Below are positions 1,714 to 12,707 of a stretch of 31,648 nt of DNA, in pieces. The notes beneath the pieces are model-generated. The model did not search any database. It was not told where the DNA came from and saw nothing but the letters and a program-made list of their open reading frames with translations. Source of the DNA: Actinomycetales bacterium (GTDB lineage Bacteria; Actinomycetota; Actinomycetes; Actinomycetales; CAWJMD01); the NCBI GenBank assembly GCA_039812305.1, contig JBDIAG010000001.1, positions 1-31,648 on the forward strand, written 5' to 3'. A program made the translations under genes and the position numbers. The number at the start of each line of letters is the position of its first letter. The first letter of the stretch is position 1.

Positions 1714-3849
1714 GTGAGCGATGCGGAGGGGGAGCAGCTGCCGCTGCTGGCGGCGCCGGCCGAGGCCCCGTCGCGTTCGTCGAAACGCTCCACGACGGGC
1801 ACCGCCGGGCTGGCCGAGCGGGATCCGGTGGCCGAGGTGCGGGTGGAGCTGGCGGTCCCGCACCTGGACCGGGTGCTCGACTATGCCGTGCCGGCCGAGC
1901 TCGCCGAGACCGCCCGGCCCGGGGTGCGATGCACCGTGGTGGTGGCCGGTCGCCAGGCGCCGGGCTTCGTCGTCACCCGCAAGGACCGCAGCGATCACCC
2001 GGGCCTGCGCAGACTGCACCGGATCTCGTCCGCGCTGCCGGTGCTGACCCCGGCGGTGCTGGGGCTGGCGGAGCAGGTCGCCGCCGAGCACGCCGGCTCG
2101 GTCAGCGACGTGCTGCGACTGGCGGTTCCGCCCCGGCACGCCCGGACGGAGAAGTCGGTGCTGGCCGCCGAGCCGGTGATCCCGCCCACCCCGGATCGTC
2201 CCGACGCGACGATCTGGGAGTCCTTTCGAGGGGGTGTCGCGTTCCTCGAGCGGGTCGTCGCCGGGCAGGCGCCGCGGGCGGTCTGGACGGCCCTGCCGGC
2301 CGCCGACGATGCCGCCGGCTGGCCACGGGCGCTGGCCGTCGCTGCGCTGACGGCGGCGTCCGCGGGCCGGGGGAGCCTGCTGGTGGTGCCGGATCGTCGT
2401 GACGTGCATCGGCTGGTCCACCAGCTGGACGAGCTCGACGCCGGCGATCTCGTCGCCCGGCTGACCGCGGATCTCGGCCCGTCCGCGCGCTATCGGGCGT
2501 TCCTGCAGATCCTGCGGGGGGAACGGCCGATCGTGGTCGGCACCCGCGGGGCGGTCTTCGCCCCGGTGCCGCGGCTGGGCCTGGCCGTCTGCTGGGACGA
2601 CGGGGACGACCTCCTGGCCGAGCCCCGGGCGCCCTATCCGCACGCCCGGGACGTGCTGATCCGGCGCAGTGAGCTCGAGGGCGCCGCCGCGGTGTTCGGC
2701 GGCCTGGGCCGCAGCGCGGAGGCCGAACTCCTCCTGCACACCGGATGGGCCAGACAGATCGCGGCCGATCGCACCATCGTGCGGCAACGTGCCCCCCGAG
2801 TGGTGACCGCGGGGGACGACGACCTGCGCGATCCGGCGGCCCGCACCGCCCGGATCCCCTCGCTGGCGCTGCGGGTGGCCCGGGAGGCGCTGTCGTCCGG
2901 CCCGGTGCTGGTGCAGGTTCCGCATGCCGGCTACGTGCCCGGGCTGGCGTGTCAGGAGTGCCGCCGGCCGGCCAGGTGTGCCCACTGCGGCGGCCCGCTG
3001 GCGCTGACCGCTCGGGCCGGCACCGCCTGCTGCGGATGGTGCGGGCGGACGGTGACGGTCGGGCCGGCGGTCGGACCGTCCGGGCAGTGGCGGTGCGGCA
3101 CCTGCCGATCCACCCGGCTCCGTGCCGTACGGGTCGGTTCGAACCGCACCGCGGAGGAGATCGGCAGGGCCTTTCCCGGTGTGCCGGTGCGGATCTCGTC
3201 CGCCGAGAAGGGCATCGTGGACGGCGCGGACGTCACCGGCGGGATCGTCGTCGCCACCCCGGGCGCCGAACCGGTCGTGACCGGGGGGTATGCGGCGACG
3301 CTGCTGCTGGACGGCTGGGTGCCGCTGTCCCGGCCGAGCCTGGACGCCGCCCTGGAGGCTGCCCGCCGGTGGTTCACGGCCGCGGCGCTGACCCGGCCGG
3401 CCCCGGACGGCGGCCAGGTCGTCCTCGTGGCCGAGAGTGCGCAACCGGCGGTGCAGGCGCTGGTCCGCTGGGATCCGGCCGGCCTGGCCGCTCGTGAACT
3501 GGGTGAGCGGACCGAGCTCGGACTGCCGCCGGCGGGGGTGCTGGCGGAGGCGGTCGGGACGGAACTCGACGGCTTCCTCCAGGTGCTGAGACTGCCGGCC
3601 GGCGTGGAGGTCATCGGCCCCCTGCCGCTGCCGTTGCCGACCTCCGACTCCGCCGCCCGGCAGGCGCGTCCCGGTGACGAGCCCACCCCCCGGATGGACG
3701 TCGTCGAGGCCGGGGCGGCCCGCGTGCTGTTCCGCGCCCCCGGCAGCCAGCGACTCGCGCTGGCCCGGGCGCTGGCGGCGGGCGGCGGCGTGCGGTCGGC
3801 GCGCAAGGCGGCCCTGCCGCGGGTCAGGATGCGCGCGGACGCGTTCTGA
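1714..3849 (+). CDS. priA: Primosomal protein N' (actinobacterial type, degenerate helicase motifs)
   Basis: HLDRVLDYAVP N-terminal domain, VVGTRGAVFAP, WDDGDD..EPRAPYPHARDV, Zn-binding CxxC pairs (CQEC, CAHC, CGWC, CGTC). Start taken as GTG 1714 (MSDAEGEQLPLL), in frame with the track ORF. Confidence 0.93.
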   Translation: MSDAEGEQLPLLAAPAEAPSRSSKRSTTGTAGLAERDPVAEVRVELAVPHLDRVLDYAVPAELAETARPGVRCTVVVAGRQAPGFVVTRKDRSDHPGLRRLHRISSALPVLTPAVLGLAEQVAAEHAGSVSDVLRLAVPPRHARTEKSVLAAEPVIPPTPDRPDATIWESFRGGVAFLERVVAGQAPRAVWTALPAADDAAGWPRALAVAALTAASAGRGSLLVVPDRRDVHRLVHQLDELDAGDLVARLTADLGPSARYRAFLQILRGERPIVVGTRGAVFAPVPRLGLAVCWDDGDDLLAEPRAPYPHARDVLIRRSELEGAAAVFGGLGRSAEAELLLHTGWARQIAADRTIVRQRAPRVVTAGDDDLRDPAARTARIPSLALRVAREALSSGPVLVQVPHAGYVPGLACQECRRPARCAHCGGPLALTARAGTACCGWCGRTVTVGPAVGPSGQWRCGTCRSTRLRAVRVGSNRTAEEIGRAFPGVPVRISSAEKGIVDGADVTGGIVVATPGAEPVVTGGYAATLLLDGWVPLSRPSLDAALEAARRWFTAAALTRPAPDGGQVVLVAESAQPAVQALVRWDPAGLAARELGERTELGLPPAGVLAEAVGTELDGFLQVLRLPAGVEVIGPLPLPLPTSDSAARQARPGDEPTPRMDVVEAGAARVLFRAPGSQRLALARALAAGGGVRSARKAALPRVRMRADAF

Positions 3850-3885
3850 CCGGCGTGCGCCCGAACTGACCGGAGTACGCCCGAG
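3846..3885. repeat. 20-bp direct tandem duplication at the priA stop
   Basis: ctgaccggcgtgcgcccgaa / ctgaccggagtacgcccgag. Confidence 0.7.
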
Positions 3886-3902
3886 CCGGCGACCCGCCGC
3901 GG

Positions 3903-5636
3903 TCAGCCGACGACGTCGAATCCGTCCGGGCCGACGACGAGCACCCCACCCGGGACAGTCGTCACCGTGGACGACCGGCCGGAGCCGGCGCGGAAGGCCG
4001 GTTCGTCCGAGAGTGGCTGGACGAGAACCCCTTTCGTCGAGGTGTTGGAATCGTCGACACAGGTCACGACGATCGCCTCCGGCGTGGCCGCCGCCTGGGC
4101 GACATTCGGGCAATCGGCGGGCCAGGTCACCTCGCGGATCGTCTGCAGCCGTGGGTCCCAGTACTGCCGGGCGTCCCCGCCGATGACCGGGACCGGCCCG
4201 GTCACGTACACGTAGGTGTTCGGTGGCAACTCCTGCAGCGCCCGGCCGGTGTGCGCGTCGAGCAGGACGGTCGGCAGGGCGACGCTGCCGAGCGTGAAGA
4301 AGGCGATCACGTCGCTGTGCGGGGAGGTCGCCAGGTACGGGTCGAAGGAGACCCGCTCGGAGGGAAGGGGAAGCTCGTAGGTCCAGGCGATCTTCCCGGT
4401 CCGCTGGTCCACCGCGTGCACCACGGCGTCGCCGTCGCAGCGGACCGTCCGCAGCGCCACCTCGTGGGTCGCGGCGGGGAGGGCGAACATGTACTCGCAC
4501 TCGGTGGGTGGCCGCCACCGCCACCGGTCCTCGCCGGTGCGGGCGTCGATGCCGAGCGCCTCACCGTCGGCTCCGGCGACCACCAGGGTCTCGTCGGTCA
4601 TCGTGAACAACCCCGATTCGCCCGCCAGAACGCGCTGGGCGAGCACCTCGCCGGTGAACCCGTCGAGGAAGACGACTCTCGTCGCCCGGGTGTCGCGGCC
4701 TCCGCCGGCGCTGAACGGCACGGCGACCACGGCTCCGTCCGGACTCGCGTACACCTGGAACGCGTTCGCCCCGCGCAGTTCGTACGACCAGCGCACCTTG
4801 CCGGTGGCAGCGTCGACGCCGGCGGCACCGCGGTCGGGCGCGCCGGGGTATTCCAGCACGGTGGCGAACCCGGTGCCGGCCGGGACCAGCGCGTTCTTGA
4901 CGATGCCGATGCCTCGGTCGGTGTCATCGTTGTGCCACAGGGTGTTTCGCGGAACCGGCGGTATCGGTGCGGCCTCCTGCGGGCTAGCCGTCGTCGAGCG
5001 CGCGGGCAGGTCGCGCAGCGTCGGCGCGGCGCCCGCGCCGGCGGCGAGCAGCGCTGCGCAGGTCAGGACGGCGGTGACCGGGGGCGCCCAGAGCCGGTTG
5101 GGTCCGGCCGACTCGCCGCGCGCCGGAGAGCCGGGCCGCCCGGTGGTGACCTGGGCCGCCTGGAGCGGGTTCGACGCAACGGCCGCGTCGCGACCCGGTG
5201 CGTCGGACCGCGCCTCGGTGACCTGGGTCGCCTGGGGCCGGTTCGACCGATCGCCGTCCGACGGCGCGCGGTCACGGCCCCGCACCGACAGGAGCAGGCT
5301 GATCGTGAGGACGAGGCCGCACAGGGCCAGCACCGCCAGCACCGGCCCCGGCGTCCCCCGGCCGACGTCGCGACCGAACAGCACGGCGGCGGTCACGGTG
5401 AGTGCGGCCGCGATGCCGGCCACGACCCAGGTCCCCCGGGCGCCGGTGCGCCGACCGGATGCGGAACCGTCCCGGCGGAAGGCGAGCGCCACCGCACCGA
5501 CTCCCAGGACGCCGAGGACGCTGACCGGCAGACCCAACGAGGACGGCGTCGCCGCGTCGCCGTCGAAGAGCCAGCTCGCCGCCACCGCCGCGACGATCGA
5601 ACCGAAGGCAAGGCCGAACCACCATCGGGCGAACAC
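3903..5636 (-). CDS. Membrane-anchored PQQ-like (BamB-type) beta-propeller protein
   Basis: About four N-terminal hydrophobic helices, then repeated blades (GVDAATGKVRW, GIDARTGEDRW, AVDQRTGKIAW, LLDAHTG). GAGAGGA RBS before GTG 5636. Confidence 0.75.
   Translation of the reverse strand: MFARWWFGLAFGSIVAAVAASWLFDGDAATPSSLGLPVSVLGVLGVGAVALAFRRDGSASGRRTGARGTWVVAGIAAALTVTAAVLFGRDVGRGTPGPVLAVLALCGLVLTISLLLSVRGRDRAPSDGDRSNRPQATQVTEARSDAPGRDAAVASNPLQAAQVTTGRPGSPARGESAGPNRLWAPPVTAVLTCAALLAAGAGAAPTLRDLPARSTTASPQEAAPIPPVPRNTLWHNDDTDRGIGIVKNALVPAGTGFATVLEYPGAPDRGAAGVDAATGKVRWSYELRGANAFQVYASPDGAVVAVPFSAGGGRDTRATRVVFLDGFTGEVLAQRVLAGESGLFTMTDETLVVAGADGEALGIDARTGEDRWRWRPPTECEYMFALPAATHEVALRTVRCDGDAVVHAVDQRTGKIAWTYELPLPSERVSFDPYLATSPHSDVIAFFTLGSVALPTVLLDAHTGRALQELPPNTYVYVTGPVPVIGGDARQYWDPRLQTIREVTWPADCPNVAQAAATPEAIVVTCVDDSNTSTKGVLVQPLSDEPAFRAGSGRSSTVTTVPGGVLVVGPDGFDVVG
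5073..5246. repeat. Three copies of a 30-bp motif at an exact 72-bp period inside the propeller gene linker
   Basis: Copies start at 5073, 5145 and 5217; peptides SNRPQATQVT / SNPLQAAQVT / PNRLWAPPVT at 24-aa spacing. Confidence 0.75.
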
Positions 5637-8985: not shown

Positions 8986-9531
8986 GTGGCTATCAAGGAC
9001 ATCCGGTTGTTCGGCGATCCGGTCCTGCGGGCGAAGGCGGAACCGGTCGTCGACTTCGACAAGCAGATCCGGCAACTCGTGAAGGACCTCGAGGACACCA
9101 TGCTGGACGCGCCGGGCGTCGGCCTCGCAGCCCCCCAGCTCGGCGTCAGCCTGCGGGTCTTCACCTACTACGTCGACGGCGTGCTCGGTCACCTGATCAA
9201 CCCCTCGCTCGACCTCACCGAGGAGGTGCAGGACGGCGAGGAGGGTTGCCTGTCCATGCCGGGGATCTACTTCGACACCCGGCGCGCCTACGGTGTCGTC
9301 GCGACCGGGCAGAACATGTACGGCGAGCCGATCACCGTCGAGGGCACCGAGCTGCTCGCCCGGTGTGTGCAGCACGAGACCGATCACTTGGACGGCATCC
9401 TGTTCATCGACCGGATGGACAAGGCCACCCGCAAGCTGGCGATGAAGGCGATCCGCGAGGCGGAGTGGAACGGCGGGCCGGCGCCGACGGTGAAGGTCAG
9501 CCCGCACCCGACGTTCGGCCGGGCTCTGTGA
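8986..9531 (+). CDS. def: Peptide deformylase
   Basis: [24 protein letters not shown] motifs. Confidence 0.97.
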
Positions 9532-10559
9532 GGCTGCTGTTCGCCGGGACCCCGGAGGTCGCGGTTCCCGCCCTCCGGGCGTTGCTGGCGTCGCGCCACG
9601 AGGTGGTCGCGGTGCTCACCCGCCCGGACGCCCGAACCGGCCGGGGACGCCGGACCGCGCCCAGCCCGGTCCGGGTCGTCGCCGAGGACGCCGGGATCGA
9701 GGTGCTGACGCCGGTCACGTTGCGCGACCCCGAGGTGGTGGCCGCGATCGCCGCGCTGGACGTCGACTGTGCTCCCGTCGTCGCCTACGGAAATCTGGTT
9801 CCCGCTGCGCTGCTGGAGGTTCCGCGGCACGGCTGGGTGAATCTGCACTTCTCGCTGCTGCCCGCCTGGCGGGGGGCCGCGCCGGTGCAGCGCGCGATCA
9901 TCGCGGGCGACGCGACGACCGGGGCCAGCGTCTTCCAGCTGGAGGCCGGTCTGGACACGGGTCCCGTTTTCGCTAGCGTGCCTGAACCGATCGGGCCCTC
10001 GGACGACGCGGGCGCGTTGCTGGGCCGGCTCGCCGACCGTGGCGCGGGCCTGCTGGTGGACGTCCTGGACGGGCTGGAGGACGGGACCGCGGTGGCGACA
10101 CCTCAAGCCGCGGAAGGCGTCTCGCTGGCACCCAAGCTCGAGGTGGCCGACGCCCGGGTCGACTGGGCGGCCGATGCGGCGGTCGTCGACCGGCTGGTGC
10201 GGGGCTGCACGCCGGCCCCCGGAGCCTGGACGACCTTCCGCGGCGACCGGGTCCGTCTGGGACCGCTGCGGCTCGTCGGCGGGATGGACGGTGCTGCGCC
10301 ACGCGGCGTGTCGGCCGGGAGTTCTGCTTTCGGGGAGCCGGCGTCCCGGACGTCGATTTCGGGTGAGTCGACTTCGGGCGAGTCGACCTTGGGGGAGCTG
10401 GCGCCCGGGGAACTGTCGGTGACGAGCCGACGAGTGCTGATCGGGGCCGGGGACGGGCCGATGGAGCTGGGGATTGTGCGAGCGGCGGGGAAGAAGCCGA
10501 TGCCGGCCGCGGATTGGGCCCGTGGCGTGCGACCCGAGGTAGGGGAGAGATTCGAGTGA
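9528..10559 (+). CDS. fmt: Methionyl-tRNA formyltransferase
   Basis: [46 protein letters not shown] overlap with the def stop. Low-complexity insert near the C-terminus. Confidence 0.95.
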
Positions 10560-12634
10560 GTGGCGATGGTGGACGGCGACCTTCCGGCGGAGGTCGTGGT
10601 GGCTCCGGTGACCGTGGCCACGGCCGGGGTTCTGGCCAGGGTCGTGCTTCTGGCCAGGGGCGCGGCTCCGGCCAGGGACGTGACTGGGGCCGGGGCGGCG
10701 GCTCCGGCGGCGGACGCGATTCGGGTGGGGGCCGGGGTTCTGGCCGTGGTTCGGGCGAGGGTCGTGGTTCGGGCGAGAATCGCGGATCGGGCCAGGGGCG
10801 TGGTTGGGGCCAGGATGGCGGTTCCGATCGGGGTCGTGGTTGGGGCGAGGGCCGTGGGTCGCGTCGGGATGGCGGTTCCGGTGGGGGTCGTTCGAGTGAC
10901 GGGCGTGACTGGGGTCGAGGTGATGGTTCCGGTCGAGGTCGTGGTTCGGGTGAGGGCCGCGGGCCAGGCCAGGGGCGTGGTTGGGGTGACGGCCGTGGTT
11001 CGGCTGACGGGCGTGACTCGGGTCGGGGCGAGGGTTCCGATCGGGGTCGTGGTTGGGGCGAGGGCCGTGGGTCCGGCGAGGATCGTGCGGGCCAGGGGCG
11101 CGGCGCTGGCCGGGCGTACGGGTCCGGGCGGGACAAGCCGGGCCAGGGGCCGCGCCGGGATGATCGTCACGGGGGCCCACGTGCCCCGCGCCAGCGGTCG
11201 GCACAGGCTCCGGCGCAGCGGGCCAAGTCCGCTGATCCGGCGAGAACCGTTGCCTTCCAAGCGCTGCGAGCGGTCGACTCGGAGGACGCCTACGCCAATC
11301 TGGTGTTGCCCAAGCTGATCCGCCGGGCCCGGCTCGACACCCGGGACGCCGCGCTGGCCACCGAACTGGTCTATGGCACTCTTCGGTGGCGAGGACGCTA
11401 CGACGCCGTGCTCGAGGCCTGTACCGATCGTCCGCTGGCCACCCTCGACGCGCCGGTGCTGGACGCTCTACGGCTCGGAGCGCATCAGCTGCTGGCCACC
11501 CGGATTCCGCCGCACGCCGCGGTGTCGGCCACGGTCGGCCTGGCGCGGTCCGAGATCGGGTCCGGCCCGTCCGGCTTCATCAACGCCGTACTGCGCAGGG
11601 TGGGCGAGCGGGACGCCGAGACCTGGCTCGGCGAGCTGACCGAAGGCCTGACGACGCTCGAGGCGCTCGCCATGCGGGAGTCGCATCCGGCCTGGATCGT
11701 CCGTGCTCTGCGGGAATCCCTTGTCTTGCATGGCCGTTCGGTGGCCGAGCTGCCGCAGCTGTTGGCCGCCGACAACCTGGCGCCGCTGGTGAGCCTGCTG
11801 GCACGACCGGGACTGTGCACCGTGGAGGAACTGGTCGCCGCCGGGGCCGAGCCGGGCCGCTGGTCCGCCTACGCGGCCACGCTGCCTTCCGGGGATCCGG
11901 GGCGGATCGAGGCGGTGGCGGAGCGACGCGCCCGCGTGCAGGACGAGGGCAGTCAGTTGGTGGCTCTCGCCCTGGCGGGAGTCGAACTACCGGGAGCCGA
12001 CCGGGACGCGGGTGCAGCCGGCACGGACGCAGGTGGAACCGACCCAGACACCCGCTGGCTGGATCTCTGCGCGGGGCCGGGCGGCAAGACCGCCCTGCTG
12101 GCCGCCCTGGCCACCGAGCGTGGGGCCCGGGTCACCGCCGTCGAGGTGGCGCCGCACCGCGCCGAACTGGTGAGTTCGGGTCTGCTGGAGACCGACCCGG
12201 TCGAGGTGATCACCGCCGACGGTCGCACCTTCGGAGACGACCACGCGGCCTCCTACGACCGGGTGCTCGTGGACGCTCCCTGCACCGGACTGGGTGCCCT
12301 GCGCCGACGTCCGGAGGCCAGGTGGCGGCGCCAGCCCGGCGATCTCGCGACCTTGGCCCCACTGCAGCGCGCGCTGCTCGACTCGGCCCTGGCCGCCTGC
12401 CGTCCGGGTGGCGTGGTCGCCTACGCGACCTGCTCGCCGCACCCCGCCGAGACCCTGCTGGTGATCGAGGACGCGCAACGCCGCCACCCCGGCCTCCGCC
12501 TGCTCGATGCCCCCGCCGCGATCCGCCGGGCCGCCGACAAGGATCTGGGCGACCTGGGCACCGGCCCCACCGCCCAACTCTGGCCCCACCACCACGGCAC
12601 GGACGCCATGTTCCTGGCTCTCCTCACTCCGTGA
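10556..12634 (+). CDS. rsmB: RsmB/NOP2-family 16S rRNA m5C methyltransferase with a ~200-aa Gly/Arg-rich N-terminal extension
   Basis: NusB-like domain (AYANLVLP...[10 protein letters not shown]), [31 protein letters not shown] 10556 overlaps the fmt stop (GTGA). Confidence 0.9.
10622..11131 (+). repeat. Coding tandem repeat, about 28 x 18 bp (GRG[S/W]G[Q/E/D/R])
   Basis: Translation in the rsmB frame: [24 protein letters not shown] ... [12 protein letters not shown]; units are diverged at synonymous sites. Confidence 0.9.
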
Positions 12635-12646
12635 CCCCCAACCTCC

Positions 12647-12707
12647 GTCGAGGGGTCACAACACGCCCCAAAATCGCCGGAATCAGGGCGTGTCGTGACC
12701 CCTCGTT
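12647..12707. repeat. 61-bp REP-like palindrome, left flank of the nuclease gene
   Basis: gtcgaggggtcacaacacgcc-ccaaaatcgccggaatcag-ggcgtgtcgtgacccctcg; 20-bp arms with 1 mismatch. Confidence 0.92.

Follow-up and report, generated by a model that had tools for sequence, protein, structure and literature searches.

Background

Does the long, regular repeat that precedes the recognisable domains of an actinobacterial RsmB-type protein belong to that protein and, if it does, what might such an extension contribute to an rRNA methyltransferase? The question is posed by a stretch of 31,648 nucleotides from an Actinomycetales bacterium (GenBank assembly GCA_039812305.1, contig JBDIAG010000001.1, positions 1 to 31,648 of the forward strand), here referred to as the window. 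The source is an activated-sludge actinobacterial metagenome-assembled genome (MAG) in 740 contigs, with 78% completeness and 5.5% contamination. A first-pass annotation had described a Gly/Arg/Ser/Asp/Trp repeat at positions 10556-11200, in frame with RsmB and probably translated from a GTG that overlaps the stop codon of fmt. The repeat was located at those positions, and the Pfam domains NusB and Methyltr_RsmB-F follow it. We put the probability at roughly 0.6 that this repeat is a translated, disordered and basic Gly/Arg extension of RsmB, the extreme form of a tail found throughout the order, and that it likely serves as an RNA-binding arm.

Arginine-rich extensions with an effect on RNA binding have been reported for several other RNA enzymes. 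In Nop2/p120, an Arg-rich N-terminal domain of ~220 residues can bind rRNA by itself; ribosome synthesis and nucleolar targeting depend on it, whereas methylation does not (PMC4510066). In the Rho proteins of M. tuberculosis and M. luteus, Arg-rich insertions confer a higher RNA affinity (PMC11347177; PMC13650167), and the intrinsically disordered regions (IDRs) of Rho phase-separate (PMC11347177; 10.1101/2025.08.28.672908). In RhlE and CsdA it is Arg/Gly-rich IDRs that modulate both condensation and the binding of RNA (PMC11260450; preprint 10.64898/2026.09.17.752289), and those of Escherichia coli CsdA have been reported to form a nucleolus-like condensate at the rrn loci (preprint 10.64898/2026.09.17.752289). 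A proposal made for eukaryotes is that RGG motifs and RNA G-quadruplexes are connected by a coding link (PMC11789052). Our literature search for RsmB tails found no paper describing them, although one may exist all the same. RsmB adds to the bacterial RNA enzymes known to bear disordered extensions rich in Arg and Gly.

Results and discussion

Evidence for translation of the repeat

The tail is very probably translated as part of RsmB. An open frame alone is uninformative in this region, because the high G+C content leaves five of the six frames open across the repeat. The start site is more telling. The GTG at 10556-10558 overlaps the fmt stop codon as GTGA, and between 10559 and 11303 there is no in-frame ATG, GTG, TTG, CTG or ATN codon, since the tail is without Met, Leu, Ile and a second Val. 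Positions P219, R222, R230, A233, V240, D244 and Y246 to P252 are invariant in a 32-sequence alignment (alignment A1), and in an AlphaFold2 model the NusB-like domain opens with helix 1 at residues 228-242, followed by a helix at residues 247-258. The only start codons further on are preceded, or enclosed, by the invariant positions from P219 to P252 and the modelled helix 1. A TTG at 10514 was also considered as the rsmB start and was rejected; the NTGA overlap at GTG 10556 is the conserved position in relatives.

The orthologous loci of the same order point in the same direction. The NTGA overlap, in which the ATG or GTG of rsmB lies over the TGA of fmt, is kept in 23 of 29 loci, and a purine-rich GGAG/GAGG stands at the Shine-Dalgarno position in most relatives. 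All 29 loci are open and in frame between the start region and the conserved core, which argues for coding because a non-coding spacer would be in frame in only about one third of cases. Within the repeat itself, variation from unit to unit peaks at the third codon position, as in coding sequence. Orthologues with tails of 98-185 residues are annotated at full length in isolate genomes as well as in MAGs.

The public gene call for this locus (P0001) differs, giving a protein of 443 residues that starts at TTG 11306 and begins MLPKLIRR. It loses 250 residues and with them the whole tail and ~35 conserved positions, among which is the NusB-like domain's helix 1. We judge TTG 11306 a miscall because the invariants from R230 to V250 and helix 1 fall upstream of it, and the call is likely a gene-caller artefact of the repeat, which has a low G+C content at third codon positions (GC3). 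The start at the fmt overlap proposed in the first-pass annotation is borne out by the conserved NTGA, the lack of an alternative start and the conserved residues 5' of the next one. That annotation had also named two observations that would speak against translation, a start downstream of the repeats and frameshifting indels in orthologues: no downstream start keeps the conserved N-terminus, and frame-breaking indels were found in 0 of the 29 orthologous loci.

Four overlapping open reading frames (ORFs) in alternative frames or antisense to the repeat were rejected as GC-driven open frames. Neither these four ORFs nor the tail matched any Pfam family, and a search of Rfam with both strands of 10200-11500 gave chance-level matches only. 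Exact look-up of the 692- and 706-residue products in a protein collection found neither of them, to which their first residue (V or L, not M) may contribute.

Composition, periodicity and origin of the tail

The tail comprises residues 1-215, among them 89 Gly (41%), 43 Arg (20%), 25 Ser (12%), 18 Asp (8%), 9 Gln, 7 Glu and 6 each of Trp, Pro and Ala; Val (the start codon only), Asn, Tyr and Lys occur once each, and Met, Leu and Ile not at all. Its net charge is +19 (isoelectric point 11.8), as against -9 for the core (isoelectric point 5.7), and the tail thereby reverses the net charge of the protein.

By Tandem Repeats Finder the tail has periods of 18, 36, 54 and 120 nt, the matches amounting to 62-80%. 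At a lag of 18 nt the sequence matches itself at 0.605 of positions, as compared to 0.42 +/- 0.02 in codon-shuffled sequence (z 9.3). The first-pass figure of about 28 units is a loose one: some 29-30 hexapeptide slots lie between residues 13 and 192, but the motif given for the units, GRG[SW]G[QEDR], is matched exactly by only 11, and the looser GR[GDA][SWP]G by 17. There are 24 RG and 20 GRG but only 2 RGG triplets in the 215 residues, and the tail is of the di-RG/GRG class, not RGG. The aromatic residues are Trp at positions 44, 84, 96, 119, 143 and 167 and Tyr at 188, with gaps of 40, 12, 23, 24, 24 and 21 residues (coefficient of variation of the spacing 0.34). This spacing is more even than random placement would give (P 0.016-0.03), by a test chosen post hoc. 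A 72-nt DNA super-repeat was considered as the basis of the 24-residue Trp spacing and was rejected, the match at lag 72 being lower than at lags 18, 36 and 54.

The 645-nt tail, as we show here, grew as an 18-nt unit was duplicated in tandem and in frame; its later divergence fell mostly on synonymous sites. The lag-18 match is 0.74, 0.63 and 0.44 at codon positions 1, 2 and 3, respectively, and where the same amino acid recurs one unit apart the codon is identical in 42% of cases, against a random expectation of 36-40%. With codon sharing near random and position 3 the least matched, the peptide pattern has outlasted the identity of the DNA; the synonymous divergence among units that had been noted earlier is real.

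Predicted disorder

The tail is predicted to be intrinsically disordered. AlphaFold2, run with the 32-sequence alignment, gave residues 1-218 a predicted local distance difference test score (pLDDT) of ~40 (<50) without secondary structure, and the core, including the helical NusB-like domain, a pLDDT above 90. At 0.30 the mean hydropathy of the tail falls well below the value of 0.445 that marks the Uversky boundary for disorder; charged residues account for a fraction of 0.32, positive and negative ones being well interspersed. The description of the tail as an RG/RGG disordered region with aromatic residues can be retained as to the predicted disorder, the basic character and the aromatics; as to motif type it is to be amended to GRG/RG. 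Against PDB sequences the sole match to the tail was the RG-rich, Phe-bearing C-terminal tail of the trypanosomatid ribosomal protein eS10 (E 0.004), a low-complexity match. A feature search of the ESM Atlas gave a best score of 0.79, which is a lead only.

Gly/Arg-rich tails in related actinobacteria

The first-pass annotation had supposed that bacterial RsmB normally lacks a tail of this length, and this did not hold. Comparison with relatives indicates that the long tail is the extreme of a variable, lineage-wide feature and not a one-off, and that a Gly/Arg-rich RsmB tail is the rule within this actinobacterial order. Counted from the conserved start, the tails at the relatives' loci are Gly/Arg-rich and 6-183 residues long; in the 115 closest database homologues the median is 49 and the maximum 185 residues. 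A homologue of 74% identity (P0002) has a tail of 112 residues. In Pseudokineococcus basanitobsidens an NCBI-annotated protein of 669 residues carries a tail of 179, in Pseudokineococcus lusitanus a protein of 571 residues carries one of 98, and Arthrobacter and Pseudarthrobacter have tails of ~65-100 residues with QGRG-type repeats.

Among representatives of 50%-identity clusters, 7-8 have genuine tails longer than 80 residues. The longest, of 244 residues, belongs to a distant cluster representative of 693 residues (P0124) and consists of repeats of ~35 residues with a Phe in PGFGRGA. At locus L030 (L030:1168-1500) a tail of 111 residues is built of units of ~25 residues with a Tyr in RRGSYDRRDR. 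It looks as if Arg-rich repeats with an aromatic residue arose independently in these two. The tail in the window is the second longest and the most regular among those surveyed.

What is shared is the composition. Each of the 120 tails of at least 20 residues has a positive net charge (median net charge per residue, NCPR, +0.14), although the sampled homologues are related, so that such counts overstate independence. Taken together, the 120 tails are 28% Gly and 19% Arg with an Arg:Lys ratio of ~14:1; Gly, Arg, Ser and Gln are enriched 2-3 fold, and only ~3% of residues are hydrophobic. Although the G+C content is high, Ala drops from 16.5% in cores to 6.8% in tails, and Val and Leu are depleted too. 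Composition is kept while sequence and length vary, as in the Arg-rich IDRs of the Rho-insertion type on actinobacterial RNA enzymes. To the extent that it can be read from these sequences, the uniform composition argues for selection on charge and solubility over pure drift.

A possible role as an RNA-binding arm

The mechanism that we propose would begin with initiation at GTG 10556, coupled to the termination of fmt through the GTGA overlap. The tail would then form a non-specific, multivalent RNA-binding arm, in which Arg could provide charge and hydrogen bonds, Trp could stack and Gly and Ser could give flexibility, and whose basic charge would offset the acidic catalytic core. Such an arm might help the enzyme to capture, or to stay longer on, early 30S intermediates or the G+C-rich 16S rRNA as it emerges, and might in addition act as a chaperone of G+C-rich RNA. 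We infer RNA binding because of the precedents of Nop2/p120, actinobacterial Rho and RhlE/CsdA.

Alternative explanations

Several observations weigh against an RNA-binding arm. Tail lengths range from 6 to 244 residues overall and are 34, 183 and 215 within one genus, the tail sequence is unconserved and the tails cannot be aligned to one another; from the variation in length and the lack of sequence conservation it follows that a long tail is dispensable for RsmB function. A search with the tail only against 5.8 billion proteins gave no match at E <= 0.001. The codons of the tail are atypical (GC3 0.61 against 0.85 in the core; GGT 36%, CGT 49%), and the public gene caller rejected the tail region. 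The share of T-ending codons (T3), an enrichment that in the window concerns Gly, Arg and Asp codons, is 0.34 in the tail and 0.09 in the core; the corresponding values are 0.22 and 0.08 at locus L003 and 0.39 and 0.15 at L030, the excess also appears in the tail-coding regions of L005 and L016, and in the relatives overall it is milder. The T-ending codons could go back to a founder unit, to selection that disfavours mRNA structure or G-runs, or to a choice of codons linked to expression. Finally, the Logan contigs of the source study, with depths of 2-6, break at 10514-10531, 10680 and 11358; these independent contigs leave the middle of the repeat (10681-11357) uncovered and its exact length unconfirmed.

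Two of the alternatives deny the tail as a protein feature or its present extent, and the public gene call gives the more radical of them its starting point: RsmB would begin at TTG 11306, and the repeat would be a non-coding spacer or leader with a role at the DNA or RNA level, for example as a G-rich structure. The low GC3 of the RsmB frame, a +1-shifted frame with the typical high-GC coding pattern, and a very G-rich coding strand (269 G against 121 C, 38 runs of at least three G), taken with the RGG-G-quadruplex link proposed for eukaryotes (PMC11789052), would all be in keeping with it. It is nevertheless extremely improbable, as a start at 11306 removes the invariant R230, A233, V240, D244 and Y246 to V250 together with helix 1, there is no near-cognate start between 10559 and 11303, neither Pfam nor Rfam has a family matching the alternative frames or the antisense strand, and the repeat holds a single canonical G-quadruplex motif; the orthologues, which retain both the frame and the NTGA start, largely refute it. 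An error in unit number or frame, produced by low-coverage short-read assembly of an imperfect tandem repeat, is conceivable in a fragmented MAG with the contig depths and the uncovered interval given above, but very unlikely. With units 62-80% identical, most 31-mers are unique; between two anchors, each conserved independently, the reading frame stays open and exactly in register; the Logan contigs are identical to the window over the flanks and over 10525-10680; and comparable tails occur in complete genomes of relatives.

The remaining alternatives accept translation and differ on function. The main rival holds that the tail is a tolerated low-complexity expansion without a specific function, in which slippage or unequal recombination resizes an N-terminal linker and selection requires only that it be soluble and harmless. 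Tails of 34, 112, 183 and 215 residues at 71-74% core identity, their failure to align with each other, T-ending codons common to the units as founder-unit propagation would leave them, and the many orthologues that work with tails of less than 20 residues are all as this reading would have them. We consider it somewhat unlikely all the same, given that every one of the 120 tails is net positive, that Ala, Val and Leu are strongly depleted though GC-rich codons favour Ala, that most members of the order keep a tail at a fixed position beside an RNA-binding domain, and that the peptide pattern persists with synonymous sites nearly randomised between units. Alternatively, and closer to the phase-separating module suggested in the first-pass annotation, an RG tail with evenly spaced Trp "stickers" might phase-separate RsmB with rRNA or partition it into a condensate of rRNA transcription or of ribosome assembly. 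The RG/GRG motifs, the Gly/Ser spacers and the six Trp and one Tyr ~24 residues apart fit the sticker-spacer grammar of eukaryotic RG/RGG proteins, the long tails of P0124 (Phe) and L030 (Tyr) also have one aromatic residue per repeat, a DEAD-box helicase of the same MAG has an RG tail, and both the CsdA condensate at rrn loci (10.64898/2026.09.17.752289) and phase separation of Rho IDRs (PMC11347177; 10.1101/2025.08.28.672908) have been reported. Against this stand the post hoc nature of the spacing statistic, the rarity of Trp in the tails of relatives (0.3%), which makes it an unconserved feature, and the 25 mixed Asp and Glu residues with a low net charge density, which may favour a soluble polyampholyte; we regard a condensate module as quite unlikely. 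The wider conjecture that actinobacterial RsmB RG tails are convergent counterparts of those of Nop2 and fibrillarin, recruiting the enzyme to or helping to build a nucleolus-like condensate of rRNA transcription and 30S assembly in high-GC bacteria, with length tuning the partitioning, is put forward with the same reserve. Under that conjecture the G-rich mRNA of the tail-coding region might also be bound by the tail itself, in a form of autoregulation.

Comparison with known systems

For a translated RNA-binding arm, the closest counterpart is Nop2/p120 (NSUN1), the eukaryotic nucleolar 25S/28S rRNA 5-methylcytosine (m5C) methyltransferase, which belongs to the same Nop2/NSUN/RsmB catalytic family as the window protein. 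Nop2 chains in the PDB match window residues 495-690 with E ~1e-16 to 1e-19, and both proteins have an Arg-rich N-terminal extension of ~200 residues. The N-terminal domain of Nop2, however, is rich in Lys, Arg and Glu and has no Gly/Arg hexapeptide repeat, the tails are not homologous, and the window protein has a NusB-like domain between tail and catalytic domain; by analogy, the resemblance of the tails is a convergent one.

Fibrillarin, the analogue named in the first-pass annotation, is apt insofar as its glycine- and arginine-rich (GAR) domain is likewise N-terminal, disordered, interspersed with aromatic residues and attached to an rRNA methyltransferase. Nop2/p120, as a member of the same methyltransferase family, is closer, whereas the fold and chemistry of fibrillarin are unrelated (2'-O methylation, against m5C in the window). 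Compared with fibrillarin and RGG regions, the window tail uses GRG/RG units with Ser, Asp, Glu and Gln, and its aromatic residue is Trp, not Phe. Arginine methylation of the protein arginine methyltransferase (PRMT) type is not expected in a bacterium.

The actinobacterial Rho insertions are similar in that they occur in high-GC Actinomycetota beside an RNA-binding domain, are biased towards Arg, Gly and Asp, and are hypervariable and predicted to be disordered. They differ in being internal insertions rather than N-terminal tails, in having no regular hexapeptide repeats and in their host protein. Rho was sought in the same 78%-complete MAG and was not found. RhlE and CsdA/DeaD share with the window protein an Arg/Gly-rich low-complexity tail on an enzyme of ribosome biogenesis or RNA metabolism, but the IDRs of DEAD-box helicases are C-terminal and shorter and sit on helicases, and such a role is undescribed for RsmB. 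E. coli RsmB (Fmu/Sun; PDB 1SQF/1SQG) shares the NusB-like and m5C methyltransferase core and the fmt-rsmB order; its chain has 429 residues, against 477 in the window core with 215 further residues at the N-terminus.

Two other proteins of the MAG (G000) have low-complexity ends. On the minus strand of contig C511, at ~2982-3944, a DEAD-box helicase with DEAD, SAT and HRSGRTAR motifs, whose ORF runs off the contig end, finishes in an RG-rich C-terminal tail of the GQRGTGQRG type (GQRGTGQRGTGQRGGG...) and is a second RG-tailed RNA enzyme in the MAG. On the minus strand of contig C168, at 1977-5147, a frame of 1056 residues has an Ala-rich, coiled-coil-like region, GPSWG repeats and then a Ser/Arg/Gly-rich tail.

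Gene order and domain layout

On the plus strand, def (ending at 9531) is followed by fmt and the rsmB-type gene (Table 1), and at both the def-fmt (9528-9531) and the fmt-rsmB (10556-10559) junctions a start and a stop codon overlap as GTGA, an arrangement suggestive of translational coupling of the three genes in series. The start of fmt is accordingly the GTG over the def stop, and its own stop TGA is at 10557-10559. The fmt gene lies directly 5' of rsmB in the 29 relatives' loci examined.

Table 1. Features of the fmt-rsmB locus in the window (amino acid residues are numbered from the GTG start proposed for rsmB)
Feature	Position	Strand	Evidence and remarks
fmt, methionyl-tRNA formyltransferase	9528..10559	+	Pfam Formyl_trans_N E 1.5e-35, Formyl_trans_C E 1.7e-16
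Shine-Dalgarno-like GGGGAG	10542..10547	+	8 nt 5' of the rsmB GTG; read from sequence
Complete rsmB-type gene as proposed	10556..12634	+	692 codons and stop; tail, basic linker, NusB-like domain, m5C methyltransferase domain
Low-complexity Gly/Arg/Ser/Asp/Trp N-terminal tail, 215 residues	10556..11200	+	composition; predicted disordered; no Pfam family
Periodic core of the tail	10592..11110	+	~29 imperfect 18-nt (hexapeptide) units
Conserved basic linker into DPAR motif, residues 216-227	11201..11236	+	P219 and R222 invariant in alignment A1 (32 sequences)
NusB-like RNA-binding domain, residues 228-349	11237..11602	+	Pfam PF01029 E 9.9e-27
TTG (Leu251), start in the public gene call	11306..11308	+	judged a miscall
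RsmB/F-type S-adenosylmethionine (SAM)-dependent m5C methyltransferase domain, residues 497-690	12044..12625	+	Pfam PF01189 (Methyltr_RsmB-F) E 1.1e-50

Alignments of the protein to relatives by tblastn start at core residues 1-3, and the NusB-like region is also matched by TIGR01951 nusB (E 7e-13). The catalytic domain has an intact SAM motif (D503, A506 and G507 to K511) and both catalytic Cys residues, in P575-C576-T577 (motif IV) and T625-C626 (motif VI), all invariant in alignment A1; the DAPCTG and ATCSPHP motifs are seen in the translation. The top structural match of the core among PDB sequences is E. coli RsmB 1SQF (E 1.8e-36). The four best NCBIfam matches are all RsmB equivalogs, each below the curated cut-off (223.9 vs 319; 217.9 vs 269; NF011494 / TIGR00563), and in NCBI records the orthologues go by "RsmB/NOP family" or "NusB". 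Judged from sequence, the enzyme is RsmB-type in a conserved fmt-rsmB context; because the NCBIfam scores fall below the curated cut-offs, we use this term rather than that of a proven 16S rRNA C967 methyltransferase.

Two further observations concern the flanks. The C-terminal domain of fmt (~10290-10425) contains a Ser/Gly/Glu/Thr-rich insertion of ~30 residues with short direct repeats, and the 132 residues matched by Formyl_trans_C cover 100 profile positions. Directly 3' of the rsmB stop, at 12647-12707, lies a GC-rich palindrome (GGGGTCACAACACGCC ... GGCGTGTCGTGACCCC), which may be an operon terminator or an element resembling repetitive extragenic palindromes (REP).

Conclusions

Gene callers can truncate genes of this kind, and disordered tails in high-GC genomes may be under-annotated. 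If the tail is a functional arm that binds RNA or forms condensates, RsmB would take its place beside Rho, RhlE/CsdA and RNase E as a bacterial RNA enzyme whose behaviour is governed by Arg-rich disordered regions, and its convergence with Nop2/p120, its own homologue in eukaryotes, would be striking. The tails of 6-244 residues on otherwise conserved enzymes form a natural length-titration series, which is timely at a point when a "bacterial nucleolus" is being proposed.

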